DNA of 64,000 nt from Candidatus Cloacimonadales bacterium (GTDB lineage: Bacteria; Cloacimonadota; Cloacimonadia; Cloacimonadales; JAFGVF01): the NCBI GenBank assembly GCA_963677495.2, contig CAXXOU010000004.1:320001-384000 (forward strand), given 5' to 3'. Below are positions 10,265 through 41,231 of this stretch, in pieces. Under the pieces are notes generated by a model that was given only the letters and a program-made list of their open reading frames with translations, searched no databases and was not told where the DNA came from. The translations under genes and the position numbers were made by a program. The stretch's first letter is position 1; each line of letters opens with the position of its first letter.

Positions 10265-10625
10265 AACATTACGTAAAGAACTGACAGTTAGTGATGTTAT
10301 TTTAATTCTTTTAATTTTGATTGCTGCCGTCACAATTTTTGCATACCAGCAAAGAAGTTCATCTTTAAAAATCAGAATTACATATAGAGATCACACATTA
10401 AGAGAGTTTTCCGGAATGGATAAAGCTAACTTTACGCTCCCTGATGGACATGGAGTTATAGAAGTGGACAGGGGAAGGGCAAGGATTCTGAACTCCGATT
10501 GTCATTCACATCTTTGTGAGAAACAGGGATGGAGTTCATCTTTACCAATCGTTTGTGCCCCTAACAAAGTTCTTGTAGAGTTCATACCTGTAAAAGAGAA
10601 GGATGAAATTATTATCCTACATTGA
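10257..10625 (+). CDS. NusG domain II-containing membrane-anchored protein
   Basis: N-terminal TM helix; SDCHSHLCEKQGW and IVCAPNKV motifs; ATG at 10257 overlaps the amrS stop. Confidence 0.75.
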   Translation: MLKTLRKELTVSDVILILLILIAAVTIFAYQQRSSSLKIRITYRDHTLREFSGMDKANFTLPDGHGVIEVDRGRARILNSDCHSHLCEKQGWSSSLPIVCAPNKVLVEFIPVKEKDEIIILH

Positions 10626-20264: not shown

Positions 20265-21527
20265 TTATCGAAGCATTACAACTTTCTTAATCTGATGAGT
20301 TCCAGATGAACTCTTAATAAAATAAATTCCGGCACCACAAGTATTTCCTGCATCGCTTGTACCATCCCATTCGAAAGACTTGGTCTTTATCTGAAAGGTT
20401 TTAACAAGTTGTCCCTTGATATTATAAATACTAATAGTCGAAGGTTTATTAGTCTTAATAGAGATCGTTGAACAGCTATTGAATGGATTAGGGTAAGAAC
20501 TGATTGTATCAGCTAGAGGTTGTAGCAAATCCTCATTGTCCAATACTGGAACATAGGGGATATGATATGGGAATCCATTGTTATCAATCATATCAATTTC
20601 CCATACATCGACAAAGTCCCATGTTAAAGTCAGATATGTGTCTTCGATTTGCATTTCGCTTACAGAACAGGATATAACATTGGTTGCAGTCCCAATAGAT
20701 GTTGCAGGGAATGCACCTTCAATAGCGTTTTCGATACACCAAACACAATTAGTAATACTGCCTTCATTTAATGCTGTTAGGGCATACGCATCAATTGAGT
20801 TATCAGTTATGAAAGCATATGAGTTAATGATAGTTGCTTGTGGATTACAGATTCCAACAATTCCTGCACATAGACCTGTTGAATTGTTCAGATCACCATT
20901 ATAGTAACAATCAGAAACAATTGAGTCTGCACAATGCCCGATTAGACCACCACATGCATAGAAGTTTCCTGCAACACTGACTTTACTGGAACATCTGGAT
21001 ATAGTAGAGTTCATTGATGCAGATGCTACTAGTCCACCGCAATAGTAGTCTGCAGTGATTTGACCTGTAACATGACATTTCTCTATCTGAGAGTTCTGCA
21101 AGAAAGCTACTAAACCTCCGCTATTTCCTGATGCATCAGAACTAAAGTCAATGTTGTCCATTGTAAGATTTTTAATGCTACCCTCATTCACTACTCCGAA
21201 TAAACCTACTACGTTTCCATACTGAATCGTTAAGTTAGAGATGCAATACCCATTTCCATCATATATACCATTGAAAGGAGCAGCCCAACTCCCTATTGGG
21301 ACAAATCCAATTGTCGGTGCTTCAGATGCGTCAATATCTGATGTCTGGATAAAATGCGATTCATTACTCCAAATGTTAATATTAGAGCTCAGCCAGTCGA
21401 TATTGTCCCAATTTTCTATTCTATAGGGATTGTCTTCAGTTCCATCTCCTAAAGGAATAGTTCTATCTGCAATTAATTGGACCATAACAGCCAATAGAAC
21501 CATCAAAGGCACCAGTCGTTTGTTCAT
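20265..21527 (-). CDS. Secreted GLUG-repeat protein with FlgD/T9SS-type CTD
   Basis: Signal peptide; GDGTEDNPYRI, FNGIYDGNGY, CGGL repeats, SYPNPFN...KKVVMLR. Confidence 0.85.
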   Translation of the reverse strand: MNKRLVPLMVLLAVMVQLIADRTIPLGDGTEDNPYRIENWDNIDWLSSNINIWSNESHFIQTSDIDASEAPTIGFVPIGSWAAPFNGIYDGNGYCISNLTIQYGNVVGLFGVVNEGSIKNLTMDNIDFSSDASGNSGGLVAFLQNSQIEKCHVTGQITADYYCGGLVASASMNSTISRCSSKVSVAGNFYACGGLIGHCADSIVSDCYYNGDLNNSTGLCAGIVGICNPQATIINSYAFITDNSIDAYALTALNEGSITNCVWCIENAIEGAFPATSIGTATNVISCSVSEMQIEDTYLTLTWDFVDVWEIDMIDNNGFPYHIPYVPVLDNEDLLQPLADTISSYPNPFNSCSTISIKTNKPSTISIYNIKGQLVKTFQIKTKSFEWDGTSDAGNTCGAGIYFIKSSSGTHQIKKVVMLR

Positions 21528-21656: not shown

Positions 21657-23588
21657 TCAATCCAACCAAGGACGTGCCTGTAAAACTTTTATGTCTCCAG
21701 CAGAACTTGTTAGAAACTCTATTTCCATTGCAAATTCATTATCATCTTCAGCACTGTAACATACTTTAAAGTGTTCATGTATCTGTTTGCTGATATTTAC
21801 AAGCTTCAATATCTCATTCTCCTGCATAACGTTAGTTCCTTTAGAGATGAGGTTTGAGTGTCTAATGTATTGAATTTCAAGTTTTCTATTGGCACCAACT
21901 TCCGAAACTAGTAACTCATCAGGTAAAGCTTTTGTGTCCGGGTTTGTGACTAATGACTGTCCCGATTGAACATTTATGTAAAACCCTTTCCAGATCGAAT
22001 CGAAAAGATTTTTCGTCACAATAACACCATTGTTTCGTTCCTTATCATAATTGCTATGTACGAGAATTCCCATTGCAATAGCATTATGATCAATTTTATG
22101 AAAATCTCGTTCTGTAAATGCTCTTAAAGTCCAAAGACTTGCCCACACTTCCTTAATTGAAACATCTAAAGGGCAGATTTCAGGTGAATACACTAAAGAT
22201 TCATAAAGTCCAGCTCCATTAAAATCTTCGAGATCTTCACTGTTTGAAGAGGAACGAAGTCTTAGAGAAGAACCTTCAGAATATGCTGCTCGCAAATCAG
22301 AAAAATCTTTCATCATCCATTCCGGAATGTGACCTTCTCGAATTTTCTCTCTTAACTGTTTCAACTGTTCTTCTTTTAATACTATATTCGCTTTGTTTTT
22401 AGTAGAACCCAACAATTTCTCGACTTCTACATAAAGATTGTTCTCTTTCATAAAATAATCATAGTAATAGAACGGAACTGCATGACCCTTAACTGAGTTT
22501 ATGTTTGGTATAACAGATAGTAATTCACCTAAGTTGCTTGATTTAGCTCCAAAAGCATTAGTCTCATTGAATCCAACATCCCATAACTCAATTATCTTCT
22601 TCTGATTTAAACTCATTTCAGGAACACTAGCAGTTTGGGGTGAAAGTGCTCTTAGATTATCTGAAACATCTTTATATGTTACTTCATTTATCTCATATCC
22701 CTCCGGTTCAACTTTTAGGTGAACCGGTTTATCCTTTAACTTGATGAGGGTTGGATTTGTAGAAGCATTTTTTATATATGCATTTGGGATGTTGTTTTGC
22801 TTAGCTTTAAGATTTACATGTGAAAGCGGAGTTTGGGCAATATCAGTGATAATCCCTCTTACATGACTTAAATCATTCGGTAAGGATTTAAAAATCACAA
22901 TATCTTCTGGTTCAGGTAAGTCAGTCAGATCTAGTATTCTAAGAACTCCCAATGAGTCTCCTGTATTTAATGGAATAAAATCAAGATTATAAAATAGTGT
23001 ATCCGAATCAATCAACCTTATAGAAGAATCTTGTTCGAAATGCATCTTCTCTTTCATGTGTTGATCGATTTGCGTTTGACTACCAAGATAGTGATATATC
23101 TGGTTTTTAGCAAAGGAAAAAGTCTTATTGATCAAATCCCATGATAGCTTAATATAATTGTATGATACGGGGTCAGTTGGCCAGTACTCGATAGTATAGA
23201 TACCATCGGGATTCTCTTCATCTTTGTAATTATCTCTTGCAACTATAGAACCGGCAAGGTTATGCCTGCCGATGTTGGTATAATAGGTCACTTTATCAAA
23301 TGCCTGTTCAGAAATATGAAATGGTGAAATCTTTTTAAAGTAGCGATAATGATGTTCGAATCGTTTAGTATCCATATAGTAGATTCGAGGACTTTTCGTG
23401 TCTACTCCGGTAATAATGAATTTGCAAACCCAGATATTCTTTAATCCCGGAACATCATTTTTTGATGCAAGTTTCTCTAAGTGTTCACGGTTCTTGATTG
23501 TCTTCTGACTAGCTAACAGATAAAATCTACTTCTTATGAAGCGATACACTTGCAACATTTTCTGCTTTATCAAACTCAATAGTACCAC
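21657..23588 (-). CDS. Stand-alone PPDK/PEP-synthase N-terminal (ATP-grasp) domain protein
   Basis: FGAKSSNLGEL, LRSSSNSEDLEDFNGAGLYES, VWASLW, EIEF...LQARP at the extreme C-terminus; start uncertain (23588 GTG or 23558 ATG). Confidence 0.8.
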   Translation of the reverse strand: MVLLSLIKQKMLQVYRFIRSRFYLLASQKTIKNREHLEKLASKNDVPGLKNIWVCKFIITGVDTKSPRIYYMDTKRFEHHYRYFKKISPFHISEQAFDKVTYYTNIGRHNLAGSIVARDNYKDEENPDGIYTIEYWPTDPVSYNYIKLSWDLINKTFSFAKNQIYHYLGSQTQIDQHMKEKMHFEQDSSIRLIDSDTLFYNLDFIPLNTGDSLGVLRILDLTDLPEPEDIVIFKSLPNDLSHVRGIITDIAQTPLSHVNLKAKQNNIPNAYIKNASTNPTLIKLKDKPVHLKVEPEGYEINEVTYKDVSDNLRALSPQTASVPEMSLNQKKIIELWDVGFNETNAFGAKSSNLGELLSVIPNINSVKGHAVPFYYYDYFMKENNLYVEVEKLLGSTKNKANIVLKEEQLKQLREKIREGHIPEWMMKDFSDLRAAYSEGSSLRLRSSSNSEDLEDFNGAGLYESLVYSPEICPLDVSIKEVWASLWTLRAFTERDFHKIDHNAIAMGILVHSNYDKERNNGVIVTKNLFDSIWKGFYINVQSGQSLVTNPDTKALPDELLVSEVGANRKLEIQYIRHSNLISKGTNVMQENEILKLVNISKQIHEHFKVCYSAEDDNEFAMEIEFLTSSAGDIKVLQARPWLD

Positions 23589-23706
23589 CTGATTTATTAC
23601 TAAATGTATGAATACAAACCTGATTTTTATATGTCAAGGGTTTGTATACATTTATTGAAAGGGATCAATGATGTAGATGTAATAAGTGTAAAATGTAAAT
23701 AATCCT

Positions 23707-23854
23707 CCTCATTGCACTCTCATAATACCGGTTCAAGGGTAATGTGATTCTAATGAGTCTCTTGGGCCTCCCCGGGGCTGGAGCATTAGTGAGTCGTAAG
23801 AAAAAGGGCAGTATCAGAGCTCGTTTTTACAATTATTATGATAGGGGAGTGAGG
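23707..23854. repeat. Imperfect intergenic inverted-repeat element
   Basis: CCTCATTGCACTCTCATAATA pairs imperfectly with TATTATGATAGGGGAGTGAGG around a GC-richer interior. Confidence 0.45.
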
Positions 23855-23984
23855 ATGAGAAGAGATGGAGTGGATTCTGCTTGTAACCTAAAAAATACAT
23901 CTTACTTAACAGGTATGTATATCTTTAATCTTGAAAATTGGATGATAACTACTATCAAACAGTCAACTCAATCTAAGAATTGGT

Positions 23985-24806
23985 CTATTTTTGTAGAACA
24001 GGTCTTTCTGGCAAAGATAAAAAAAGAAATGGAGAAGGTTTTATACATTTACCACCGTATGAACCGTCAGGTCTCTTGTCTTCATCAAGAATTACACTAT
24101 TATCATTGTGAAATTCATGACTTCTCAAAATATCATGGAAAATAGTCATTAAAGTGTCTTGATAGGTTTCAATCTTAATCCTATGCTTAAGGCCATTTCT
24201 TTGCTCCCATATGTTATAAACATATAGGTTAGAAACTGAGTCTATAGCAGTAACAGCAGAAGAATCAATTATTGTTGTAGGTGATGATATTGAAAGGTCA
24301 ATTATTCTTCTCATATGTTGACGAATGTTAACAGGAGTTGTAGATATATTCATATCTTCAATTAAATGATTATAATGGTTAGGTAATATGTATATCTTAG
24401 AATTATATGTTGCACACATGTACCTTGATTCTTCGAAATTTTCAAGGTTTTGCATGAAAAAGACATAGGCTCCGTTAAAGCTTTTTGTAGTAATTTCTTT
24501 AGGAGTCATTCCTGTCCAATGCTCGAGTTTTGAATACTTAAGTTGATGGGTAATACTTTCCGAATTCTGAGCTTCATTGAATAAGGAAGTAAATAATGAG
24601 TCCCACAATGTTTTTGCTTCTATTTCAAAACTATTAAGTGTAGGATTAGTATCAATATGCGCAATCTCAGTAATTCTTGGATCTCGAGATCTTTTTGCTA
24701 GTTGAGCACCAGAATACTGAACTGGAGTTTCTATAGGTTTATTATATGTTGAGATTAAACCTAAAAACACAGACAGCAATAGGATAGTGAATAGATGTTT
24801 TTTCAT
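23985..24806 (-). CDS. Hypothetical exported protein (paralog of 24832-25662)
   Basis: Signal peptide; shares DPRIT.IAHI..NPTLNS.EIEAK.LWDSLFT, YMCATYNSKIY and YNIWEQRNGLKH with its neighbour. Confidence 0.8.
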   Translation of the reverse strand: MKKHLFTILLLSVFLGLISTYNKPIETPVQYSGAQLAKRSRDPRITEIAHIDTNPTLNSFEIEAKTLWDSLFTSLFNEAQNSESITHQLKYSKLEHWTGMTPKEITTKSFNGAYVFFMQNLENFEESRYMCATYNSKIYILPNHYNHLIEDMNISTTPVNIRQHMRRIIDLSISSPTTIIDSSAVTAIDSVSNLYVYNIWEQRNGLKHRIKIETYQDTLMTIFHDILRSHEFHNDNSVILDEDKRPDGSYGGKCIKPSPFLFLSLPERPVLQK

Positions 24807-24831
24807 AATCTCACCTCATATTCATTATAAA

Positions 24832-25662
24832 CTACTCAGTTTTTCTAGTTTCAGTTAGAGGTTTCAATATTGGACTTAATGGACGTGAAATGAATGGATA
24901 AGCGGATCCTTTAATGCATTTTCCATGAAAATCATGGGAATTTTTATTTAAATCAATTATAACTTCACTTCCATTGTAATAACTTCTAGAATCTACCCTA
25001 TCAAACAACATTAGAAAAAGAGAATCTTGATTTATACAGACATCAATCTGATGTTTGAGACCATTTCGTTGTTCCCATATATTATATTGAAAGGTTCCAC
25101 TATTGAATAGAGAATCTGCAACAGTAGAATCAATGACTGTGACTGGGGATGATATTGAAGATTCTATCAATCTTCTAATAAGTAAAGATTTGTTTGATGA
25201 TTGCAAGTTTATTCCCATGTCACTCATTAGATCGTTAAAATGGGTTGGCATAAGATATATTTTTGAGTTGTATGTGGCGCACATGTATTCTGATACATAA
25301 AAGTGATTTAGATTTTGCATAAAGAAGATATGAACACCATCGAAGTTCTTTGAAACGATCTCTTTTGGAGTAAAATTTGTCCAATAATCTGTGGTAAGAT
25401 TTATAAGTATACCTATGTTCTTAGTAGATGAGGATGCATCGTTACGCAAAGCAGTAAAAAGTGAATCCCATAACACTTTAGCTTCAATTTCATTACTATT
25501 TAGTGTAGGGTTTGAATGGATATGAGCAATATCTGTGATTCTAGGGTCATCTGATCTGTTTGCTAACTCATCTCCATAATAATACATTGGTTGCTCATGG
25601 TGGATGGATAATAAGCCTAAAAATATAGACAACAATAGGATAGTGAATAATATTTCTCTCAT
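24832..25662 (-). CDS. Hypothetical exported protein (paralog of 23985-24806)
   Basis: Signal peptide; same conserved blocks as its neighbour. Confidence 0.8.
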   Translation of the reverse strand: MREILFTILLLSIFLGLLSIHHEQPMYYYGDELANRSDDPRITDIAHIHSNPTLNSNEIEAKVLWDSLFTALRNDASSSTKNIGILINLTTDYWTNFTPKEIVSKNFDGVHIFFMQNLNHFYVSEYMCATYNSKIYLMPTHFNDLMSDMGINLQSSNKSLLIRRLIESSISSPVTVIDSTVADSLFNSGTFQYNIWEQRNGLKHQIDVCINQDSLFLMLFDRVDSRSYYNGSEVIIDLNKNSHDFHGKCIKGSAYPFISRPLSPILKPLTETRKTE

Positions 25663-25793
25663 GATTTCCTCTCAGACATATAAAACTAGAGTATAATTAG
25701 CTACATCTTATATTTATAACTATAACAATAATATATAATATGGATAGGTTTGTAAAGAAGAATATTTTTTCCGCAAGGAATTATTTTTAACAT

Positions 25794-25822
25794 AAAAAAA
25801 GCCCCCGCGTTAGCAGGGGCTT
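25794..25822 (-). terminator. Intrinsic terminator of the Omp28-like gene
   Basis: A7 followed by GCCCCCGC-GTTA-GCAGGGGC. Confidence 0.75.
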
Positions 25823-25842
25823 AATATATAATTCAGAAATGA

Positions 25843-28731
25843 TTATTTCATCATTATCATTTTGTTGGTAGCCTGGAAGTCACCTGATGTGAGTTTATAG
25901 AAATAAACACCACTTGCAACTGATTGATCGTTATCATCAATACCATTCCATACTACGCTATGACGACCTGCTGTGAAGTTGTCATTTGTAAGAGTTCTAA
26001 CCTTTCTACCACGGATATCATAGACATCGATAGAAACAAGACCGGCGTCTTTGATTTCAAATGCAATGTTAGTAGTTGGGTTGAATGGGTTAGGATAGTT
26101 ACCAAGTAATTGTGTAGTTGCAGGAGTAACAACGTCATCAGCATTATCTACACCACCGGCACTATAGATACCGAAGTCATCTACGAGGAATGCAAGTGTA
26201 CCTTCAGATACACAGTGGATACCTACGCGAACCATTTGGTCTTCATAGTCACCAAGGCTAACTTGGATATTTGTCCATCCCTGTGGTACAGTTAATGGAG
26301 TATCACCAGAAATAACTGTGAAATCTGCAGGATCGATTGAACCATTAGATACAGCAACTTCAAACTGGTCTTCACCATACTGTGTAGAGAGTGATTTAGC
26401 CCAGAAACCAACGTAAGGAAGGTTATAAAGCTCAACAGGTTGTGAGATTAACCAGTCATCGTTAGCAGTTGTTTCTGATGCGAATGTAGCGAAACAGAGG
26501 TCACCACTATGAGTCTGGTGGAAAGCTTCCATTGGAGGAGTTGTTTCCTGTGGGTTGAAGCCGATAAATGGCATAGATTCACCTGAACCTGGGAAGTCAG
26601 CACCAACGATAGAATAAGTGTTAGTTCCATCAAGGTCATAAGTAGTCCAAGGGAATGTAGCGTTTTGCCACAATGTCATCTCTTCAATGTCATCAACGAA
26701 GAGAGCAGGGATTTCCTGTTCTTGAACGAGCACAATTAACTCACCAAATTTAAATGATTCACCTTCTGCATAAACAGAAGTGAACTCATATGTGAAGTTA
26801 CCAAACTCATGGTCAAGCATTTGTAATGTGTTATTTGCAGTTCCACTAACGAAATCAACAAGTTCGCCATCTCTATAAACGTTGTAACCAATATGGTCAC
26901 GATCACGTTCATCAGCGCGTCCTGCTTCACCGGTAATGTTTCCATTACTGTCAACTCTCTGTAATCTTACAGGATTAGGTACATCCCAGCTTACAGTAAC
27001 ATCAACAACATATTCAATACCATAACTGAACTGTGTTGGAGGGTAGAAAGGCATATCAACTGTAACCTCAGCGTTAACTAAGTCACAAGGTTCAGATTCA
27101 CCGGGACTGAAGATAGCTTTAACTACAAACTCATGATCTCCAAGTGGTACATCAGTTACAATGTATTCAAGATCAGTAAGCATCTCAGGGTTTGAAGGTG
27201 TTGTGTTATCATCCATATAGATGTTGTAACCTTGAACAAGTGTTTGCATTCCTAAGAACCCGATTTTAACATCATCGATAGCCCAACCGGAAGCCCATTC
27301 ACCAGCATCATCAGTGTGGAAAGCGATTAGTAGATTTGATTGATCAATGTAAGCATTTAAGTCAATAGTAATAGTTGTCCAACCATCAGCAGGTGCTAAT
27401 TGTTCTAAGACTTCCCATGTTGTTCCACCATCAGTACTAGCTTTAACATAGGCTAGCTGACCATATGAACCATTATAATAACTAGCAAAAGACATACCGC
27501 AATCTATTGAACCGGTAAGGTCAATTGCAGACATAATCATCCAGTCTTCAGAACCATCTGAACCGTCACCTGTAGCATCATCATTAACATAAGCGTATGA
27601 TGTATGACCAGGGATTTCGAAATATTGGCTACCACCGTTTGTGCCAACCTGCCAACCAACGCTGGCATTAGTTGTTTCAGTCCAACCGGCAGGGAAACCA
27701 TTCTCAAAATCTTCTTCAATTACATAATCAGGAAGTCCTGGTTCCGCCCAAGTCAACCAAACCCAGTTTCCGGCAACGTCTTGAGTTAAGTTTGCTGGAG
27801 GAAGAACAAATTCATCCATCTGAGCTGCTATATTTGCAGGAGTGTTTTCATCAACTGTTACAGCAGTTGAGATATGGTCTACATATCCCTCTTTTTCAAC
27901 AACAACGTCATAAGTACCTTCCCATACTGGAAGTGCACATTGACCGTTTGCATCTGTTACATCTTCGTAAAGACCGGCTGTAACAAGAGCGTTAGCAATA
28001 GGCTCATTTGTATACATATTTGTAGCTGTTACATTGATAACAGAGTTAGGATCTATATCACCACGTGCAGCCTGAATAATCTCATAAGTGCCTGTAGCTG
28101 TTTGAACCATCACAACAATACTTAAGTCTGTGATAACCCAATCAGCTTCGATAGTCAATGGCTGTGAATATTGACCTTGCTCACCGTTTGTTGTCTGAGT
28201 GAAGCTTTGTGATTCATACACTTCTACTGTACAGAAGTAATCATTATCAATTCTTCTTGTAACGATAAAGTACATATTGTTATCAGTAGTAGTGATGTCA
28301 CCGGTTAAAGTTGCATCAGCTACAACGTCAATTGTAGTACCATTGATTGTGTAAGTGAAAGACAAGTCGATAGGACTATCAGTAGGTTCAATATTGTTGT
28401 AATGTGCTAAATAGCGTTCATAACAATCATTACCACCACCCACTTCAGGGGTTGTACCTTGGAATTGAACGTGAGGAATACCACTAACACCGTACCAGCC
28501 AACTCTTTCTTGCCAGTTTGGACTCTCATTCTCAGTGTCAGATTCCCAAATCAATGGAATAAAATGTGGGGCGTTATCATCATTATCTAGTTCGAGCAGA
28601 CCTGCTCGAGAATCAGGACAGAATCCTCAAGTGGATGCTGTAAACATCTCTGCAACAACTCCAATCTGGGTTGCACAGATAATTGCAAACATGCTGATAA
28701 AAACAGAAAGTAATATCGTTTTCTTAAGCAT
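25843..28731 (-). CDS. Probable secreted selenoprotein (962 aa): Omp28/thioredoxin-like UxxC domain, carboxypeptidase-regulatory-like domain, two cleaved-adhesin (choice-of-anchor J)-like domains, FlgD/T9SS-type CTD
   Basis: ATG at 28731 with AAGGAG RBS and signal peptide MLKKTILLSVFISMFAIICA, in frame with the 903-aa ORF; single in-frame TGA (28627-28629) in EMFTAST*GFCP; downstream YGVSGIPHVQFQG cis-Pro motif; NDDWLIS adhesin motif; NYPNPFNP...KMIMMK. Confidence 0.85.
28592..28626 (-). promoter_or_regulatory. Bacterial SECIS-like stem-loop downstream of the in-frame UGA
   Basis: mRNA reads UGA-GGAUUCUGUCCUGAUUC-UCGAGCA-GGUC-UGCUCGA: perfect stem with a G-starting loop about 25 nt after UGA. 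Confidence 0.7.
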
Positions 28732-28927
28732 TTTCGTATCTCCTTCTATGTTTTGTAGATTTCCTTAACTCAAATTCTCTTCTCTTTCCCAAGAATGTCA
28801 ATGAATTATCTTTATATTATTTGTTTCAAGCAATATTCATTCCATGAAAATAGTTGAATCGTGCTAATTTTGTACTTTCATCGACTGGGTTAGGCTTTGG
28901 TGAATAGTAAAATCCGAGCACCATTGT

Positions 28928-32431: not shown

Positions 32432-32752
32432 TTAGATTCCTCTTACATGATGATTCATGATTGAAATAAATAGTTTAAGCATTAATCTGTAAAGAAGGTT
32501 CTTTATCATTGCTACTTTTATTTCCAATCTCTTTTAAGATTTTATCTACCATTTCACTGACGAACTCCTGATTTGGAAATGTACAATCTATTTCCGCAGG
32601 CAAACATTATTTTACCCATGAGGGCACGACCAACAGTCCGGATTGTTGTAGTTTCAGATTTAAAGGTCATGGTTAGTACGCTGAAGAAGTATAGCGTCAT
32701 AAATTAAGTGCTTTAATGGAAATCTTTAATAAAAACCCAAATGAGCCTGCTG

Positions 32753-32910
32753 CATCCCTTCCAGTCCCGTGACTAAGACAAGTTTTCCATAAATATTTAA
32801 GTTATCCACATCATGTGGATAAATCGAGGCATTGCACGAGAGGGTCACGAGAGGGTCACCTGTGGATTACCTTTGAAACACCTTTTTTAGTCAGGAGACT
32901 GGAAGGGATG
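32753..32910 (+). repeat. DnaA-box-pair repeat element, copy 2
   Basis: 24-bp terminal inverted repeat with 2 mismatches; TTATCCACA-TCA-TGTGGATAA at 32802-32822; 11-bp units at 32835, 32846, 32857 and 32868 (CACGAGAGGGT twice). Confidence 0.85.
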
Positions 32911-32997
32911 AAGAAGGGCAGATTTGGGGGAAATTTATTGCTGGGCTCATTGCGACCGGATGGGAGTTTGAGCAATAGCGAAATTTGGCAATACTCT

Positions 32998-33148
32998 ACC
33001 TTTTGCATGGTCCTTAGACCTTCGAAATGGTGCATTTGCAATGTGAAGTTTACTCCTTCGGGATTCACCATTTGCAAGGTTTACAACCATTCCAAAGGTG
33101 AGAGTTTGTGATCTACCTTTCGAATGGTCATCAGGTCTTCAAAATGGT
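32998..33148. repeat. Array of six ACCWT-N4-AWGGT quasi-palindromes
   Basis: Copies at 32998, 33018, 33067, 33086, 33115 and a degenerate one at 33135. Confidence 0.8.
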
Positions 33149-33195
33149 ACTCTTGTAATCTTAGGTTACAGTACAAGTCTGTAAGTTGATCCTAT

Positions 33196-33226
33196 AAAAA
33201 AAGCCCTTCCATAATCGGAAGGGCTT
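33196..33226 (-). terminator. Intrinsic terminator of the M16 peptidase operon
   Basis: A-run followed by GCCCTTCC-ATAATC-GGAAGGGC. Confidence 0.8.
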
Positions 33227-33242
33227 CAATCTTTATTTCTGA

Positions 33243-35330
33243 TTATTCAATACTGAAGATAGAATCATCTACATCTGGGTTCCACTGAATATCAGTGATT
33301 GTTGTTTTACCAACGAGGGTTCCATCTTCCATATATGACTCATCTTTAGTTTGGATTGTACCTGTTTTAGTAGTCTGAAGCTCAAGGAAGAGAGTATAAA
33401 TAACTGTTTGATCTTGCTTAGATATTCTACCTTTAAGCTCATTATTTTCATCAAGAAGTAACCAGTAGTCGGTTTCTTCTCTTCTAAGTCCAAGAGTTTT
33501 ATATGTAACACCATTGTAAACAGTATCTTCATCAAGATAAGGCGTATATTGGTCTCTGTATTTAGAAATCCAAAGAAGGTTCTGATAACTTTGTTTGAAG
33601 CTATCTTTAACCATAGAATCTTGCATTGGCATAGATTGGCCTGCAAGCTTTTGAACGCCTTTCTTACCATTAAATACCATATCAATCTTCATGCCTTGAG
33701 CTTCGATTGTACGTACTACTTTATCAGGATACTTTGTGACAACTGTATAGTCCATGGCAATCTCTTGTCCTTGAGCATACTGAGTTGATTTACCGGAAGT
33801 TCTAACAGTATTAACTTCTCTTGCATCGCCCATCTTCGTAAGTACATCAGCAAAGACAGTTGCACCTTGTGCAAGCATCTCATCAGTAACTTCTTTAAGT
33901 TTGTTACTTGGCTCCGGAATTGTAATATCGAGAGTGTTTACTTCACCATACTTTGAAAGAGGTGCGTCAAAACCTGTTTGGTCACCTAGAACAACCATTA
34001 TGAACTTGTCAGGGTGTAGGTACTGTTTTGCAACACGTTCAACGTCCTCTTTAGTAACTTTCTGAACACCTTCTTTAATCTTCTGCATGAAGTCAGTTGG
34101 GTAACCGAATAGGTCAAGTGTACGCATTGAGTTAACAATAGATTTCTTCTTAGCATATTTGAAAACATAAGAGTTAAGGAAACTTTCCTTTGCCTGATTA
34201 AGTTCTTCATCAGTAACAGGAATCGTTTTCATGCCTTCAATTTCAGCAATAAGCGCATCGATTGCTTCAGTTGTTTTCTCAGATTTAGTCTGAGACATAA
34301 CGTAAAAGACACCCGGAATCTCATAGTTAGTACTATAATATGCAGCAGGAGAGTAGGCAAGTCCCTTCTCGGTTCTTACACTTTTAAACACACGGCTACT
34401 AAAGCCTCCACCAAGAATTTGATTCATAACAATCATTGGGAAGTAGTCAGGGTGATCTTTAGTGAACTCTGTCATGTGCCCTAGAAGAATCCAAGATTGA
34501 GTTGCATCAGGTCTATCAATGTAGTTAACAGATGGATTCATCACAACAGGTACTTCATCTAAATCTAAGAAAGAACCTTGATCCATAGGAGTCCATTTTT
34601 CGAAATGCTCTCTCATCTTTGCAATCATCTCAGCAGTATCGAAGTCACCAACAATACTAACAGAGATTCTTGAAGGATGGATTACAACGCTATGGAAGCG
34701 AAGAAGGTCGATTCTTTCTATGTTGTTAACGTTATCATACTCGATTGTTCTGGCATAAGGACTATCAGCTCCATAGATTAACTTCTGATACTCACGGAAC
34801 ACTACTTCCTGGTCAGAGTCATTACGTCTGGCAATTCCTTCTTTAATCTGCATCTTGACTATGTCTAATTGTTCTTCGTCGAAGGCAGGCATCAAAAGAT
34901 TATCTCTTAAAATATCAAGAGCTAAATCCTCAGTCTCTTTGAGATAACTGATACTGTAATTACCGGTTCTTGCAGAGAAATCTGAATAGAACTGGATTGC
35001 GTTAAGATCAAGTAGCTGCTTTAATTCACTTGCAGGGTAATCTTTAGAACCACCCACAGTGAGCATGTTACCGATAATGTCAGATACACCATGTTTTGTA
35101 TATTCTTCATAAACAGCACCGCCATCAAACATCATGTCGATGTTTACAACAGGGAAAGACTTGTCTTCGCAGAGGAAGAGTTTCATACCATTATCTAATA
35201 CAACTTCTTCAACTTTAGGCATCTCGAAATTGCGTAATGGAGGGAACTTCATATCTTTAACGTTTTTGTTTGTAGCACAACCGGCTAAAAGGAGTAAGCC
35301 AACGATAAGTAATAGTATTGCTTTTTTCAT
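33243..35330 (-). CDS. M16 (pitrilysin-family) non-catalytic subunit, lipoprotein with C-terminal extension
   Basis: Lipobox LAGC; lacks HxxEH; has LGGGFSSR..VRTEKGLAY motif; extra C-terminal domain of about 220 aa. Confidence 0.85.
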   Translation of the reverse strand: MKKAILLLIVGLLLLAGCATNKNVKDMKFPPLRNFEMPKVEEVVLDNGMKLFLCEDKSFPVVNIDMMFDGGAVYEEYTKHGVSDIIGNMLTVGGSKDYPASELKQLLDLNAIQFYSDFSARTGNYSISYLKETEDLALDILRDNLLMPAFDEEQLDIVKMQIKEGIARRNDSDQEVVFREYQKLIYGADSPYARTIEYDNVNNIERIDLLRFHSVVIHPSRISVSIVGDFDTAEMIAKMREHFEKWTPMDQGSFLDLDEVPVVMNPSVNYIDRPDATQSWILLGHMTEFTKDHPDYFPMIVMNQILGGGFSSRVFKSVRTEKGLAYSPAAYYSTNYEIPGVFYVMSQTKSEKTTEAIDALIAEIEGMKTIPVTDEELNQAKESFLNSYVFKYAKKKSIVNSMRTLDLFGYPTDFMQKIKEGVQKVTKEDVERVAKQYLHPDKFIMVVLGDQTGFDAPLSKYGEVNTLDITIPEPSNKLKEVTDEMLAQGATVFADVLTKMGDAREVNTVRTSGKSTQYAQGQEIAMDYTVVTKYPDKVVRTIEAQGMKIDMVFNGKKGVQKLAGQSMPMQDSMVKDSFKQSYQNLLWISKYRDQYTPYLDEDTVYNGVTYKTLGLRREETDYWLLLDENNELKGRISKQDQTVIYTLFLELQTTKTGTIQTKDESYMEDGTLVGKTTITDIQWNPDVDDSIFSIE

Positions 35331-36818
35331 CTATTCTCCCTTCGGCATGAGTTTGCCAATAGTTCTATTTGTATTCACAAGATATTTGCTTGCAGCACGT
35401 TGAATATCTTCTTTAGTAAGTTGCTCTATCTCCTCAAGTGAAGAGAAAAGCTTTTCATAGCCATTGTTGTAAGCTTCAGAACGAGCTAAAAGGATAGGGA
35501 GGTATTGTCCACTATCAAGCTGCATAAGATATTGGCGTAACGCCCCCATCTTGTATGCTGTGAACTCTTCATCGGTGATGCCATCAGCGATAAACTTAGC
35601 AATCTCTTCATCGATTGCAGTCAGGTTATCATCAAAAGTAGAACTCTGAGCAGGAATTGCACCTACTAAGAAAAGGTTTGGGTAAAGAATCCCGGGATAG
35701 CCGTTGAAACTGAAGCCATACATAGCAGTTTTATCCTGCTCTACTAATCTTGTATATAATCTTGATGTCTGTTTTTGACCAAGAATAGAAGCTAAAGCAG
35801 TAATTGCTTGATTATCTTCATGAGTCTCTTCAGGGATATGATAACCAATCATTAAGAAAGGTTGAGATTTTTCCTCTAATACAAACTCTTTCTCTTCAGT
35901 TTGCTCAGGCTCGACTACAGGCCATTTAGGGGCTTTAGTTCCCGCAGGGATCTGTGTGAAATACTCTTCAGCAAGTTTTTTGACTTCCTCAGGATAGATG
36001 TCACCGGAGATAGCAAATACTAAATTGCTTGCTCCATAGTATTTTTCGAAGAATGCTTTTACATCACCTCTAGTCATCTCTTCAATGTCTTTTGCCCAAC
36101 CGATAACCGGTGTGTTATAAGGGTGTTTGGTGAATGCATTTCCGGCAAGCTCAGCCATAAGTTTGCTACTTGGGTTATTTTCGAGAGTCATGCGTCTCTC
36201 TTCAAGAATAACTTTGCGTTCTCTGTAAAACTCTCTGAAAACAGGATTAGTGAATCTATCTGATTCCATAGCCATCCAGAGTTCAAGTTTATTTGAAGGT
36301 ACACTTACTTGGTACATTGTGAAATCCTGACTTGTACCTGCATTGAGTCTTGAACCACCACGGTTTTCAAGAATAGTTGTGAACTCATTCTGTACAACAT
36401 ATTCAGATGCGGCATCTACAAGTGCATCAAGTTCGGCTTGTAAGGCATCAAGTTTTGCCTGATCTGCTGCTTCACCTTTAGCTTTCTCAGCGAGAATTTC
36501 ATCGAACTTAGCATCGGCTTTATCCATGATCTTCTTCTCTTTCTTGTAATTGGTTGTACCAATTGTTTCTGTGCCTTTGAAAGCAAGGTGCTCTAGGAAA
36601 TGAGCCATGCCTGTGTTGCCCTTATCTTCATTAACAGCACCTACACGTGCCAAAGTTATACAATGTGCAATTGGAACTTCGTGGTTCTCAAGCACTAGTA
36701 CAGTTGCTCCGTTAGGAAGAGTGAACTTCGTAACATTATCCACCATCTGCTCATAGTTACCGGCAAACAGGGATGTGAGCAATAAAGTAAATACCAATAC
36801 GATTAATACTTTACGCAT
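35331..36818 (-). CDS. M16 (pitrilysin-family) zinc peptidase, catalytic subunit
   Basis: Signal peptide; GMAHFLEHLAFKGT (HxxEH), NAGTS, ERKVILEERR, HPY..PVIG. Confidence 0.92.
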   Translation of the reverse strand: MRKVLIVLVFTLLLTSLFAGNYEQMVDNVTKFTLPNGATVLVLENHEVPIAHCITLARVGAVNEDKGNTGMAHFLEHLAFKGTETIGTTNYKKEKKIMDKADAKFDEILAEKAKGEAADQAKLDALQAELDALVDAASEYVVQNEFTTILENRGGSRLNAGTSQDFTMYQVSVPSNKLELWMAMESDRFTNPVFREFYRERKVILEERRMTLENNPSSKLMAELAGNAFTKHPYNTPVIGWAKDIEEMTRGDVKAFFEKYYGASNLVFAISGDIYPEEVKKLAEEYFTQIPAGTKAPKWPVVEPEQTEEKEFVLEEKSQPFLMIGYHIPEETHEDNQAITALASILGQKQTSRLYTRLVEQDKTAMYGFSFNGYPGILYPNLFLVGAIPAQSSTFDDNLTAIDEEIAKFIADGITDEEFTAYKMGALRQYLMQLDSGQYLPILLARSEAYNNGYEKLFSSLEEIEQLTKEDIQRAASKYLVNTNRTIGKLMPKGE

Positions 36819-37128
36819 TTATCCTCCATCTCATTTATTTTCATTTCAGTCATCAAAATTAACATTGCCTTTAACGCAATAAAAAAAACGGGTTCGCCCC
36901 GTATTTACATTAATAATAAGCGAAAGGGGAGAGGTTACAGATTATATGTAATAGCTTGCCGCAATTATGGAGTGCATCAACTATGTAGATGCATCTTGTC
37001 ACGTATCTAATCTTTGCTATTTTTCGCTATTGTCAATGGCAGTGAGAAATGGTACACGATGGCAGTGAAAAGTGGTACAAAACTGCCAACCTTTAAAAAT
37101 GACTACTTCAAGACAGTTTGGAGTAGGT

Positions 37129-38604
37129 ATGATTGGAGTAGAAGTGTATCATTCAATAAAAACTATGCATAAGCAAGGGCATAGTCAGCGTAAGATCGCA
37201 GAGGAGTTGTCTCTATCAAAGACAACAGTAGGTAAATACATAAATATGACACTTGATGAGTTCATGGAACTAATAAACAATAGCATTCGTGAAAGCAGTT
37301 TTGCCATATGTGAGCAATATGTCCGCGAAAGGCTTAGCAAATATCCACGATTAAGAGCTAGTGTACTATATTTAGAAGTTAAGAAAAAGTTCCCTGAGAT
37401 AAAAGCAAAAGACAGAGCTTTCCGAGATTTTGTTCGTAAGCTAAAGCAGACTTATCCTGTCGATAAATACCGTAATTATGCAGTAATCGAGACGGCTCCC
37501 GGTGTTCAGGTTCAAGTTGATCCAGGTGAGATGAAAGTAGTTTTGGGTAATAAACGTCAAAGAGTTTATTTTATAGTTTTTGTGCTTTCCCACTCGCGTC
37601 AAAGCTATGTCCATTGGAGCACAACACCATATAACACATCAAGGTTTATTGAAGCTCATCGTGAAGCTTTTATCTATTTTGAAGGTATCCCTTCAGAGTG
37701 TGTTTACGACCAGACAAAGCTTGTAGTAATACAGGAACGCTATCGGGAAGTAATCTTAAATAATCAGTTCCATCAGTTTGCAGCAAAAACGGGCTTTCAT
37801 CCTCATGTATGCGAAGGCTATGATCCACAAAGCAAGGGTAAAGTAGAGCGTAATGTCTCAGAAGTAAAGCATGGCTTTATGTATGGCAAAGAGTTCAAAG
37901 ACCTGGCAGACCTGCGTTCACGCGGACTTGAGTGGCTTTTACACTTTAACGGCAGAACCCATGGCACAACCCGTAAAGTACCATCAGAAGTATGGCAAGA
38001 AGAGAGGTTAAAGCTAAAAGATATTCCAGAGTTTATCTTCACTTTAGAAGTTCGTAATGCAGATAAAACAGGCTTAATCTCGTATGAGGGTAATAAGTAC
38101 TCTGTTCCATTAGAGTATCAGCGAAAACAGGTATATGTGCAAAAAGAAAAGAGCACTTTAGTGGTGATGGATATTTATACAAGAAAGGAAATCTGCCAAC
38201 ATGAGCTATGCACAGAAAAAGGCAAAATCATCAAAAACACTAATCATTATCGGGATTTTACGGTAGTGCTACAAGAGCTTATTGAGCGAGTAAAGGATGA
38301 GATGAGTGAATATATCCAAGGAGAAGAACTAATCCAGAGGCTTGTTAATGATAACCCTAAAATAGCAAGGGATCAGTTGAGAGCCTTAAGCAAGTTTAAG
38401 CGTAACTATGAAACAGATGTATGGGAGTCAGTGCTTCCTGAGGTAATGACTCTTTCGCATGTAAAGGCAACAGCCATAGAGAAGCTTCTGAATGCAAAAG
38501 TAAGACAAATGAAGCTAAATGAATTATCAGAATCAGAACCACAACAAGACTCAGAGAGTTCATTAATAGAGCGCTCATTAGATGACTACATGAAGGTGTT
38601 ATAA
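37129..38604 (+). CDS. istA: IS21 DDE transposase IstA
   Basis: N-terminal HTH; ETAPGVQVQVD, VYDQTK, SKGKVER; likely start MIGVEVY after GGAG. Confidence 0.93.
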   Translation: MIGVEVYHSIKTMHKQGHSQRKIAEELSLSKTTVGKYINMTLDEFMELINNSIRESSFAICEQYVRERLSKYPRLRASVLYLEVKKKFPEIKAKDRAFRDFVRKLKQTYPVDKYRNYAVIETAPGVQVQVDPGEMKVVLGNKRQRVYFIVFVLSHSRQSYVHWSTTPYNTSRFIEAHREAFIYFEGIPSECVYDQTKLVVIQERYREVILNNQFHQFAAKTGFHPHVCEGYDPQSKGKVERNVSEVKHGFMYGKEFKDLADLRSRGLEWLLHFNGRTHGTTRKVPSEVWQEERLKLKDIPEFIFTLEVRNADKTGLISYEGNKYSVPLEYQRKQVYVQKEKSTLVVMDIYTRKEICQHELCTEKGKIIKNTNHYRDFTVVLQELIERVKDEMSEYIQGEELIQRLVNDNPKIARDQLRALSKFKRNYETDVWESVLPEVMTLSHVKATAIEKLLNAKVRQMKLNELSESEPQQDSESSLIERSLDDYMKVL

Positions 38605-38605
38605 G

Positions 38606-39337
38606 ATGATAGAGATAACTAAAACATACATCAAAAGGGCTCGTTGTACTCATATTTTGAATACTCTTGAAAGTGCAGTTTTAGAAGCAGAGAAACAGAA
38701 TATGACTTATCTGGAGTTCGTACATTATCTATTTGAAAAAGAGAACTCAGGAAGGAATCAAACCAATATCAACAGAAGACTTAAACAGGCTCACATCCCG
38801 ATAATAAAGACCTTTGATGAGTTCGACTATGCTTATCAACAAGTAATAACCAAAAGACAAGTAAAGGAGTGGAAGAACTTTGTCTGGCTGGAGCAGAGGA
38901 GGAATATAATTTTAATGGGACCTCCGGGAGTAGGTAAGACTCATGTTGCAACAGCACTCAGTTATGAAGCAATAAAGGCAGGCTATAAGGTGGTGTTTTA
39001 TAATCTGAACAACCTTATCGAAGAACTTGTACTAGCTGAAGCAGATAACAACATAGATAAATATCTAAGCAATATAGCCAAGAATGATCTGATAGTTATA
39101 GATGAGATGGGGTATCTTCCTCTCCAGACAAAGGCAGCTAATCTGTTCTTTAGACTCATCCATCTCTTATACGAATTTAGATCAGTAATCATAACATCGA
39201 ATAGGTTGTTTAATGAATGGGGAGCTATTTTTAACGACAATGTGATAGCAACTGCTATTCTTGATAGATTACTCCATCACTCACAACCAATTACAATGCT
39301 CGGAGATAGCTTTAGACTAAGGAATTTTCAAAAATGA
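38606..39337 (+). CDS. istB: IS21 helper ATPase IstB
   Basis: GPPGVGKT, IVIDEMGY, IITSN, AILDRLLHH, GDSFR. Confidence 0.95.
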   Translation: MIEITKTYIKRARCTHILNTLESAVLEAEKQNMTYLEFVHYLFEKENSGRNQTNINRRLKQAHIPIIKTFDEFDYAYQQVITKRQVKEWKNFVWLEQRRNIILMGPPGVGKTHVATALSYEAIKAGYKVVFYNLNNLIEELVLAEADNNIDKYLSNIAKNDLIVIDEMGYLPLQTKAANLFFRLIHLLYEFRSVIITSNRLFNEWGAIFNDNVIATAILDRLLHHSQPITMLGDSFRLRNFQK

Positions 39338-39439
39338 AGACTGTACCATTTTTAAATGCCAAACTGTACCAATTTAAAATGCCATTGACACGCTATTCAC
39401 CATCTCCCTTCGGTAGCTATTGCGACAGCTTTAGAATAG

Positions 39440-39624
39440 CATACACAGTGAGTTTTGCAACAACTTAGCTATACTTGCTGCCCTTTTTACTCCCTTTTAC
39501 TGTTCTATCCGCCCACGCACTGCGTACGCACTGTGTACCCACTGTGAAGGCACTGCCAACCCACTGTTTCACTGGGTGCACAGTGCGTGCACAGTGGGAA
39601 AACAGTGGGATGACTACGTTTTGG
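39440..39624. repeat. CACTG/CAGTG 11-bp-phased repeat element, copy B
   Basis: Colinear with 11318-11502; the core ACCCACTGTTTCACTGGGTGCACAGTGCGTGCACAGTGGGAAAACAGTGGGATGACT is identical. Confidence 0.88.
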
Positions 39625-39912
39625 TGGATAATGAAAAGGAAGTGTTAAGAAAAAGTGATGAATGTATAAAATGAAAAATGTAAGGTTCACACTTACTGAG
39701 ATGATAGTGCTGATTAGAATGGAATTTTTCGAACTCTCTTGATTTGAATATTTACTATATGCAACCCCAACGATGTTGAAATTGTTATGTACCCCGATCA
39801 CTCCTGATCGGAATAGTTAGTATATTCAGCCACGATTGGGGTGGATTTGTTTGATTAGGATATTTAACCATGCATTTCATGGCTACTCACATTTTATCCC
39901 GTTGGGATAAGC

Positions 39913-39942
39913 AAACAGGACAGCAAAAATGCTGTCCTGTTT
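39913..39942. terminator. Terminator hairpin downstream of the acyl-CoA dehydrogenase gene
   Basis: AAACAGGACAGCA-AAAA-TGCTGTCCTGTTT. Confidence 0.75.
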
Positions 39943-39987
39943 TAATATAATCTCTCACCTCAGAGATTACTAAATATATAGTTACTA

Positions 39988-40028
39988 CTAATACTCTTTC
40001 AAAAGGTTAGTAGCCACAATCTGTCTTT
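39988..40028 (-). repeat. Synonymous duplicate of the acyl-CoA dehydrogenase 3' end
   Basis: Encodes RQIVATNLLKEY*, identical to the gene end at 40086-40124, with 6 silent differences. Confidence 0.9.
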
Positions 40029-40085
40029 TTAAAAGACAGTTGCTTGCTATGCAAGCGAAGTAAACTACTACTTCTCTTAAATGAT

Positions 40086-41231
40086 TTAATATTCTTTCAA
40101 TAAGTTAGTCGCAACAATCTGTCTTTGAATTTGATTAGTTCCCTCATAGATCTGGAGGATTTTTGCATCACGCATCATTTTCTCAACAGGATACTCTTTC
40201 ATATAGCCGTAACCACCGAGAACCTGAACTGCGTCAGTTGTAACTTTCATTGCAACATCAGATGCGAAGTATTTACACATAGCTGATTCTTTGCTGTACT
40301 TCTTGCAACCTGCATCAACCATACGTGCTGTTTGATAAACAAGAGCACGTGCAGCTTCAGTTTGAGTTGCCATATCAGCAAGCATGAACTGAACACCCTG
40401 GAATGATGAGATAGGTTTGCCGAACTGATGACGTTCTTTTGAATATTTAGCAGCGATATCAACAGCACCCTGTGCAAGTCCAACTGCCTGTGAGGCAACC
40501 ATAGGTCTTGATTTATCGAAAACTTTCATTGCAGTAATGAAACCGGTACCCTTACGGCCGATAAGGTTCTCTTTAGGGATTTTGCAGTCTTCAAATACAA
40601 GCTCTCTTGTAGCTGATGAACGGATTCCCATTTTGTCCTCTTTCTTACCGAATGAGAAACCGGGTGTTCCTTTCTCAACTACGAAACATGAACAACCACG
40701 TGCGCCTTTGCTGCGGTCTGTCATGGCGAAAACTGTATAAATCTCAGCTTCTCCACCATTGGTGATCCACTGTTTTGTACCGTTAAGGATGAAACCATCT
40801 TCAACTTCTTCTGCAGTAGTTTCAATAGCACCGGCATCTGAACCTGCATTAGCTTCAGTAAGAGCGAAAGCACAAAGTCTTTCACCTGCAGCGATTTGAG
40901 GAAGATACTTCTGTTTTTGCTCCTCGTTACCACTAATGAGTATTGGATACATCCCAAGTCCTGTAGCACCAAAAGCAAGAGCGATACCTGTATCTACTTT
41001 TGAGAGCTCTTCAGTAACGATTGCAAGGTCAACAACTTTACCACTAATCCCATCATACTCTTCCGGTACGAGAACTGCGAAAAGGTCTGATTGAGCCATA
41101 ATCTCAACGATATCCCAAGGGAAGATACCTTCTTCATCATATTTAGCAGAGAGAGGAGCAATCTTCTCAACTGCGATTTTGCGAGCTATTTCTTTCATTT
41201 CAAGCTGGTCTTCTGTTAAAAAGTAATCCAT
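40086..41231 (-). CDS. Acyl-CoA dehydrogenase (butyryl-CoA dehydrogenase-like)
   Basis: AFALTEANAGSD, GTKQWITNG, KMGIRSS, RHQFGKPI..FQGVQF, LGGYGY, IYEGTNQIQR. Confidence 0.95.
   Translation of the reverse strand: MDYFLTEDQLEMKEIARKIAVEKIAPLSAKYDEEGIFPWDIVEIMAQSDLFAVLVPEEYDGISGKVVDLAIVTEELSKVDTGIALAFGATGLGMYPILISGNEEQKQKYLPQIAAGERLCAFALTEANAGSDAGAIETTAEEVEDGFILNGTKQWITNGGEAEIYTVFAMTDRSKGARGCSCFVVEKGTPGFSFGKKEDKMGIRSSATRELVFEDCKIPKENLIGRKGTGFITAMKVFDKSRPMVASQAVGLAQGAVDIAAKYSKERHQFGKPISSFQGVQFMLADMATQTEAARALVYQTARMVDAGCKKYSKESAMCKYFASDVAMKVTTDAVQVLGGYGYMKEYPVEKMMRDAKILQIYEGTNQIQRQIVATNLLKEY

Follow-up and report, generated by a model that had tools for sequence, protein, structure and literature searches.

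Gene structure and the in-frame TGA

The sequence analyzed here, hereafter the window, is a stretch of 64,000 nucleotides (nt) from a Candidatus Cloacimonadales bacterium (assembly GCA_963677495.2, contig CAXXOU010000004.1, positions 320,001 to 384,000 of the forward strand), and its minus strand carries, at 28731-25843, a 962-codon frame whose sole interruption is a TGA at codon 35, in the context EMFTAST-U-GFCP, where U stands for selenocysteine (Sec). We propose that this frame is very probably one gene for a 962-residue exported selenoprotein, in which Sec would be inserted at the TGA, the chain would leave the cell through the type IX secretion system (T9SS) and an N-terminal thioredoxin-like module would perform redox chemistry. 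The features of the gene are listed in Table 1. A first-pass annotation, made from the letters of the window alone, had located the ribosome binding site, the ATG, the codon-35 TGA and a hairpin 3' of it, and re-reading of the sequence finds all four at the same positions. In alignments with homologs the coding sequence is conserved on both sides of the in-frame UGA, and position 2 of the predicted mature protein is Gln in all 21 aligned homologs.

Table 1. Features of the selenoprotein gene in the window (bits are given as score vs cut-off)
Feature	Position	Strand	Basis
Ribosome binding site AAGGAG, 8-nt spacer to start codon	28740..28745	-	sequence read directly
Start codon ATG of the 962-codon frame	28729..28731	-	N-terminus MLKKT... 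kept in three same-genus genomes
Predicted signal peptide, codons 1-20 (KK, hydrophobic core, ICA before TQ)	28672..28731	-	judged by eye
In-frame TGA, codon 35, read as Sec	28627..28629	-	aligned with TGA or Cys codon in homologs
UxxC redox motif (U-G-F-C)	28618..28629	-	aligned with HBP35 WCGYCP motif
Putative Sec insertion hairpin: 7-bp stem 28609-28603/28598-28592, GGUC loop 28602-28599	28592..28609	-	17 nt 3' of the UGA
TTG start of the table-11 open reading frame call (903 aa)	28552..28554	-	open reading frame list; inside thioredoxin-like fold
HBP35-like module, residues 21-226: thioredoxin-like (~21-114) and beta-sandwich (~121-225)	28054..28671	-	AlphaFold2, Foldseek, NF045500
CarboxypepD_reg-like beta-sandwich, residues 232-305	27817..28038	-	Pfam PF13620, 33.4 bits vs 32.3
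MAM-type jelly-roll domain, residues 341-490	27262..27711	-	Pfam PF00629, 27.2 bits vs 26.4
Choice-of-anchor J, best stretch residues 739-852 (two-stretch match)	26176..26517	-	NCBIfam NF038128, 90.3 bits vs 30
Type IX C-terminal sorting domain, residues 879-959	25855..26097	-	TIGR04183, 41.5 bits vs 23; PF18962, 33.7 bits vs 27
Stop codon TAA	25843..25845	-	end of 962-codon frame
Terminator-like G+C hairpin then T run, directly 3' of the stop	25794..25820	-	sequence read directly

Homologs and the selenocysteine column

Residues 1-230 were used in a six-frame search of 41 related genomes (60 of the 97 places listed were fetched, beyond the loci already returned), and homologs were found in 40 of them, many with exactly one TGA. 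Copies were then re-found with a profile from a 21-row alignment (A1), giving 86 distinct copies, and the 53 with a profile score >170 were taken as the core subfamily. At the column of codon 35 these core copies have TGA (24 of 53) or TGC/TGT (29 of 53), within the motif E-[VLM]-F-T-x-x-W-[U/C]-x-x-C-P. Trp is thus never found at this column in the homologs, which hold either U or C, as the first-pass annotation had expected, and TGA recurs there in independent genomes. The 21-row alignment shows no variation at either position of the U/C-x-x-C motif, nor at one Pro, which would fit the cis-proline of thioredoxin folds. The six genomes that lack both selB and tRNA-Sec carry distant copies with Cys and no consistent hairpin. 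Across the phylum, 50 of 121 sampled genomes have a match at E <= 1e-25, and by hand count 42 of 89 matches contain one TGA, genomes of a second order being among them.

Several paralogs and relatives were seen alongside the core copies. A second gene in the window's own genome, on contig C4 at 1359125-1357260 (minus strand), encodes in 621 codons a predicted signal peptide, the motif W-U-G-Y-C-P, Ig-like domains and a type IX sorting domain, with a 5-bp GGUC-loop hairpin after the TGA; one-TGA copies of it occur in every searched genome of the window's taxonomic family. In two small subfamilies the TGA is shifted: one reads C-x-G-U-G-G-D-Y, a CxxU arrangement (L085 of G016, L087 of G040), and the other G-C-U-G, with adjacent Cys and Sec (L086 of G035, L088 of G020); only weak small hairpins follow the TGA in all four. 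A full-length relative of the same architecture, P0003 (959 aa, from a 4.5-kb metagenome contig), is 56% identical over the N-terminal region.

The hairpin downstream of the UGA

The hairpin UCGAGCA-GGUC-UGCUCGA has G residues in its apical loop, a criterion for the bacterial selenocysteine insertion sequence (SECIS) that is given in a figure legend of PMC2398784. Locally it folds at -9.2 kcal/mol, whereas 300 recodings of the peptide with synonymous codons average -2.7 (p 0.04). A scan of the 3.4-Mb genome for read-through TGAs in long frames that are followed, 8-24 nt downstream, by a hairpin with a GGUC loop gave only five sites, and the window gene and its paralog account for two of them. 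Further such sites lie on contig C1 at 84369 and 105417 (both plus strand), in the contexts CVS-U-GVTPPG and GAG-U-APPSF, and are candidate selenoprotein genes in their own right.

Two registers of the hairpin were found in the family. In the one that characterizes the window's taxonomic family, here called type II, the GGUC loop occupies nt 27-30 counted from the U of the UGA; in type I, which is found in the rest of the family, the loop lies at nt 22-26. Among 15 distinct relatives the type II helix is paired at 79% of its positions, compared with 26-56% in slid controls, and one of its pairs alternates between G-C (8 sequences) and A-U (6) through substitutions that change the amino acid. 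A G-rich-loop hairpin is kept in TGA-bearing homologs, which supports the SECIS proposed in the first-pass annotation. Taken with the shuffling test given below, the evidence that the hairpin exceeds chance is mixed but favourable.

Selenocysteine machinery

The genome that contains the window (3.41 Mb in four contigs, 99.46% complete) encodes everything that the first-pass annotation had asked for in the way of Sec machinery. A tRNA-Sec(UCA) gene lies on contig C2 at 364620-364714 (57.1 bits, cut-off 47), selA (534.8 bits) and selB (323 bits) adjoin each other on contig C1 at 23212-26490, and selD scores 381.3 bits, the three protein genes all being above curated cut-offs. The selD gene has a single in-frame TGA of its own, which is followed by a G-loop hairpin. 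No tRNA of this genome other than tRNA-Sec has a UCA anticodon. A 96-nt 'tRNA-Cys(aca)' called by ARAGORN on contig C4 at 243769-243864 (minus strand) has mismatched stems and does not match the tRNA-Sec model, and was set aside as a probable false positive.

Fold and domain architecture

AlphaFold2 run on the 21-row alignment models the N-terminal module with a predicted local distance difference test score (pLDDT) of 95.6; its thioredoxin-like part runs beta-alpha-beta-alpha-beta-beta-alpha, and a sandwich of seven strands comes after it. The top match of the model in a Foldseek search of PDB is HBP35 of Porphyromonas gingivalis (5y1a, E 2.8e-11, TMq 0.77). By sequence profile, HBP35 NVVLEVFTAEWCGYCP also aligns on the motif of the window family, and therefore the window Sec sits on the first active-site Cys of HBP35. 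The alignment, the fold and the comparison with HBP35 agree that the UGA occupies the first site of a UxxC thioredoxin motif, i.e., the nucleophilic position that the first-pass annotation had assigned to it. Of the label Omp28/thioredoxin-like given in that annotation, the thioredoxin fold and the UxxC motif stand; the Pfam Omp28 model stays below its cut-off and likeness to Omp28 is confined to the sandwich half, the best relative of the whole module being HBP35.

The middle domains had been described as adhesin-like. No cleaved-adhesin model matched them, and Pfam and NCBIfam give CarboxypepD_reg, MAM and choice-of-anchor J instead. In other members of the family the same head is joined to PKD, beta-helix or Ig-like middles, and the head therefore appears to be a portable module carried on varied stalks.

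Proposed mechanism and alternative explanations

For the window protein we infer actual Sec insertion, a surface location, redox activity and a substrate, as follows. Translation would start at ATG 28731. At codon 35, SelB with Sec-tRNA(UCA) would bind the GGUC-loop hairpin 17 nt downstream, and Sec would be inserted without termination. The signal peptide would carry the chain across the inner membrane, the sorting domain would route it through the type IX system, and PorU would remove that domain, leaving the protein on or near the cell surface. There the selenol of U35-x-x-C38 in the N-terminal HBP35-like module would act as the attacking group in thiol-disulfide (or selenol-disulfide) exchange, while CarboxypepD_reg, MAM and choice-of-anchor J may serve as a stalk or binding part.

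The alternative that survives best, though we consider it unlikely, accepts a genuine selenoprotein and places it in the periplasm or among released proteins, where it would act on the cell's own secreted proteins in folding or quality control, in a Dsb-like manner, and not as a surface enzyme or binder. Such a role would suit the report that an hbp35 plasmid complements an E. coli dsbA mutant (PMC2907840) and the low score of the PorV-like match in the genome (159 bits, cut-off 250). The secretion domain claimed by the first-pass annotation, however, proved to be a type IX sorting domain above its curated cut-off; PorU (615.8 bits) and SprA (431 bits) are above their cut-offs in a profile search of the genome; the same domain ends at least 48 other open reading frames (ORFs) there; and HBP35 itself is described as surface-located (PMC2907840). 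These points speak against this alternative.

Much less probable is that the TGA is read through by a near-cognate Trp or Cys tRNA, or through a change of code. Such decoding would produce the full-length protein equally well, and sequence cannot separate Sec from Cys at the protein level. Against it stand the tRNA-Sec as the sole tRNA with a UCA anticodon, the complete Sec machinery, the hairpin at SECIS distance with its compensatory change, and the ordinary use of TGA as a stop: TGA terminates 133 of the 1357 open stretches that span 300 codons or more in the whole genome, and the two window TGAs that the first-pass annotation had named as normal stops (10623-10625 and 39335-39337) do end open stretches of 138 and 247 codons.

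It is just as improbable that the TGA of the window gene is itself a true stop, with the gene yielding a 903-aa protein from TTG 28554 or decaying as a pseudogene: the table-11 ORF and the public calls do give 903 aa and TGA is a genuine stop elsewhere in the genome, but the product would be a secretion domain without a signal peptide, its start would fall inside a confidently folded thioredoxin-like domain, downstream of strands 1 and 2 and the active-site helix, the 34 codons upstream of the TGA are conserved in other genera as predicted signal peptide and EVFT motif, and the column itself holds TGA or a Cys codon in every core copy. The public annotation gives close relatives as 898, 901 and 883 aa, with the name 'choice-of-anchor J domain-containing protein' for two of them, and its starts differ from one another and from that of the window gene, all being internal to the fold. 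The automatic mis-call foreseen by the first-pass annotation is thus real: gene callers cut the front end because the Sec codon is read as a stop. As the predicted signal peptide and the active site are missing from the public calls, surveys of secretomes and selenoproteomes miss the window gene and its kin.

A number of observations weigh against the proposed selenoprotein, besides the PorV score. When the whole 71-nt stretch is compared with shuffles, z is -0.55 and 54 of 200 shuffles fold equally well. The hairpin is without a bulged U, which is a feature of the E. coli SECIS element (PMC8659212), and an Rfam scan of 28400-28800 at an E-value threshold produced no fitting model, its only three matches being to unrelated families and at chance level. 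The module misses the cut-off of NF045500, 'Omp28-related selenoprotein' (40.2 bits vs 200, residues 24-226), and the gathering score of Pfam PF11551, Omp28 (17.7 bits vs 34.9, residues 178-229). P0003 has Ser at the Sec column (S-D-N-C), a degenerate motif and altered neighbouring motifs, and by its sequence is apparently a redox-dead version; because of that Ser, the redox site is dispensable in at least one lineage. A redox partner is absent among the neighbours of the window gene.

The neighbouring genes encode a PPDK_N protein, acetate kinase, a hydrolase, M16 peptidases, a sorting-domain protein and two ORFs without a Pfam family. Nearby, at 20265-21527 (minus strand), lies a 420-aa ORF with a type IX sorting domain at its end and a weak match to the GLUG motif.

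Cys-codon relatives and tRNA-Sec with a GCA anticodon

The type I hairpin is strongest after Cys codons, where it folds at -8 to -12.7 kcal/mol (synonymous-recoding p 0.003-0.06). At four codons of the hairpin, pairs with the same residue agree in codon in 95-100% of cases, compared with 21-70% at the nine codons upstream of the Cys codon, a figure that leans towards the hairpin as the 25 copies compared were picked for having one. Remnant SECIS-like structures after Cys codons are described as single cases in PMC1794560. Reading the post-Cys hairpins as such remnants was considered and dropped: the codon choice in the hairpin is fixed, and the hairpin tracks the tRNA anticodon.

Because the post-Cys pattern is systematic, the tRNA-Sec-model matches of the relatives were typed by anticodon (Table 2), and 34 sampled Cloacimonadales genomes have a typed tRNA-Sec-type gene. 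The UCA and GCA classes align base for base on the same scaffold, both with G before CCA, and score 54-63 bits against the tRNA-Sec model. Two selB genes were found only in G020 and G031, the same two genomes that have both anticodon types. Among the 63 family copies with a profile score >100, TGA goes with UCA, and TGC or TGT (TGY) with a hairpin goes with GCA. Kin are not independent, and the association is therefore given as a pattern with no statistic; a single taxonomic family (f12) nevertheless has both states, with G035 and G040 on one side and G022 and G030 on the other.

Table 2. Genomes by anticodon of tRNA-Sec-model matches, and codon at the Sec column in family copies with profile score >100 (n=63)
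tRNA-Sec type	Genomes	tRNA loci	TGA	TGY with hairpin	TGY, no hairpin
UCA only	17		26	0	1
GCA only	15: G012, G017-G019, G021, G022, G024, G027-G030, G033, G034, G036, G039	L126-L128, L131, L141, L147-L156	0	27	3
Both UCA and GCA	2: G020, G031	L122-L125	2	2	1
No match, selB present	1: G038, 91% complete		0	1	0
No match, no selB	6				

Other selenoprotein families were compared with the same typing. SelD has one TGA in every UCA genome with a match and none in any GCA genome, a split that follows the anticodon perfectly; it is only partly informative on whether UGC means Sec, because many GCA genomes have a fused SelD without a clear hairpin. This fused type, of about 740-780 aa with a G-C-A-C-K site, was seen in G034, G018, G039, G031, G028, G019 and G036 (L162-L171) and is unlike the 350-aa G-U-G-A-K form of the window's genome. 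FdhA was found in 14 of the 41 genomes, with TGA in two UCA genomes and UGC/UGU in 11 GCA genomes and in G020, and a GGUC-loop (GGUCU) hairpin follows the site in 13 of the 14, two of them with compensatory stem changes; G027 differs. GrdA, described as having no known Cys form (PMC1794560), was found in four genomes only, all with UCA-type tRNA-Sec, and because of this confinement it is uninformative on the same point. Within G020, FdhA uses UGC while SelD and the window-gene family use UGA. On contig C19 of G022, a stretch of about 8 kb (32623-40525) contains fdhA, selB, selD and a GCA-type tRNA-Sec gene, with a copy of the window family 25 kb upstream of this cluster.

A gene tree of 63 rows, built by a quick method, requires at least 7 changes between U and C, 5 of them forced by well-supported branches.

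On balance, we lean slightly towards the view that the 'cysteine' relatives in GCA-type lineages, whose hairpin would be kept by selection, write Sec with the Cys codons UGC/UGU. True Cys homologs nevertheless exist: HBP35 is one, and others are the distant copies from the six genomes that lack the Sec machinery. If Sec is indeed written in this way, two Sec codons would be in use within single cells of G020 and G031, the Sec codon would have switched at least 5 to 7 times in the family tree, and every UGA-based selenoprotein catalogue would overlook Cys-codon selenoproteins. The window gene itself is a standard UGA/UCA case, for which the evidence for Sec is strong.

These results also bear on how selenoproteins are recognized. 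In this phylum the test of finding Cys in homologs is confounded, because many of the 'Cys' homologs sit in genomes whose tRNA-Sec would read Cys codons; the Cys-codon copies in GCA-type genomes may themselves encode Sec, and the family would allow the writing of Sec with Cys codons to be tested directly.

Comparison with known systems

Most of the exported bacterial selenoproteins known so far are metalloenzymes of the periplasm. With a selenol-thiol site, a modular T9SS cargo would bring selenium redox chemistry to the cell surface of bacteria that are abundant in anaerobic digesters.

Writing Sec with Cys codons by way of anticodon variants of tRNA-Sec is credited to Mukai et al. 2016 by PMC8124441, PMC10778597 and PMC5330540, and PMC5330540 ascribes to the same work a 'Cloacimonetes type' of tRNA-Sec that has a 7+5 stem and G73. 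The relatives in 15 genomes resemble that system in combining UGC/UGU, a SECIS-like hairpin and a GCA tRNA-Sec-type gene, whereas the genome of the window gene pairs UGA with a UCA anticodon. SelC* tRNA-Cys is reported to have U73 (PMC7609411, PMC5389517), in contrast to the G before CCA in both anticodon classes of Cloacimonadales. The principle is thus already in print, while its extent in the phylum and in an exported family may be new; the main text of a 2026 selenoproteome review leaves the UGC pattern of this phylum unmentioned.

Among the protein families, DUF1223/Atu2684 (2axo) is the second-best structural match to the whole module (E 1.2e-09, TMq 0.63) and matches weakly over the CxxC stretch, but with E 0.1 its Pfam match falls short of significance, and within the scope of this analysis it is not known to have a selenoprotein form or a secretion domain. 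The Omp28 domain structure 2r2c resembles the beta-sandwich half (Foldseek E 5.7e-05). GOS_C, for which 74 Sec sequences were reported in 2008 together with a UxxC motif and a Trx-like fold (PMC2398784), is equated with NF045500 in a table of the 2026 review (PMC13188914). It shares with the window protein the UxxC motif in a thioredoxin-like fold, the region aligned to the NF045500 model including the motif, and differs in having been defined from marine reads (PMC2398784); the descriptions consulted mention neither a domain architecture nor a secretion signal for it. The NF045500 cut-off is reached in none of the 41 related genomes, which makes the Cloacimonadales family a distant relative of NF045500 rather than one of its members. 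With a related UxxC selenoprotein family catalogued since 2008 and curated as NF045500, the first-pass description of exported modular selenoproteins as poorly described was an overstatement. Our literature search returned no work linking Omp28 with selenoproteins or Cloacimonas with Sec, and the main texts of BSepDB and deep-Sep make no mention of Omp28, T9SS, GOS_C or Cloacimon.

The closest known system is HBP35, with which the window protein shares the thioredoxin-like and beta-sandwich module, the EVFTxxW-C-G-Y-C-P stretch, a signal peptide (predicted in the window protein) and the type IX sorting domain. HBP35 is reported to reduce insulin disulfides, for which C48 and C51 are needed, to bind hemin and to reach the surface via its C-terminal domain (PMC2907840), and it is thus an assayable model for the function of the module. 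It differs in having Cys where the window protein has Sec, in belonging to a different phylum and in its size of 344 aa, with no MAM or choice-of-anchor J domain and 14% identity over the structural alignment. The window gene very probably encodes an exported HBP35-like selenoprotein, a distant relative of the curated GOS_C kind.

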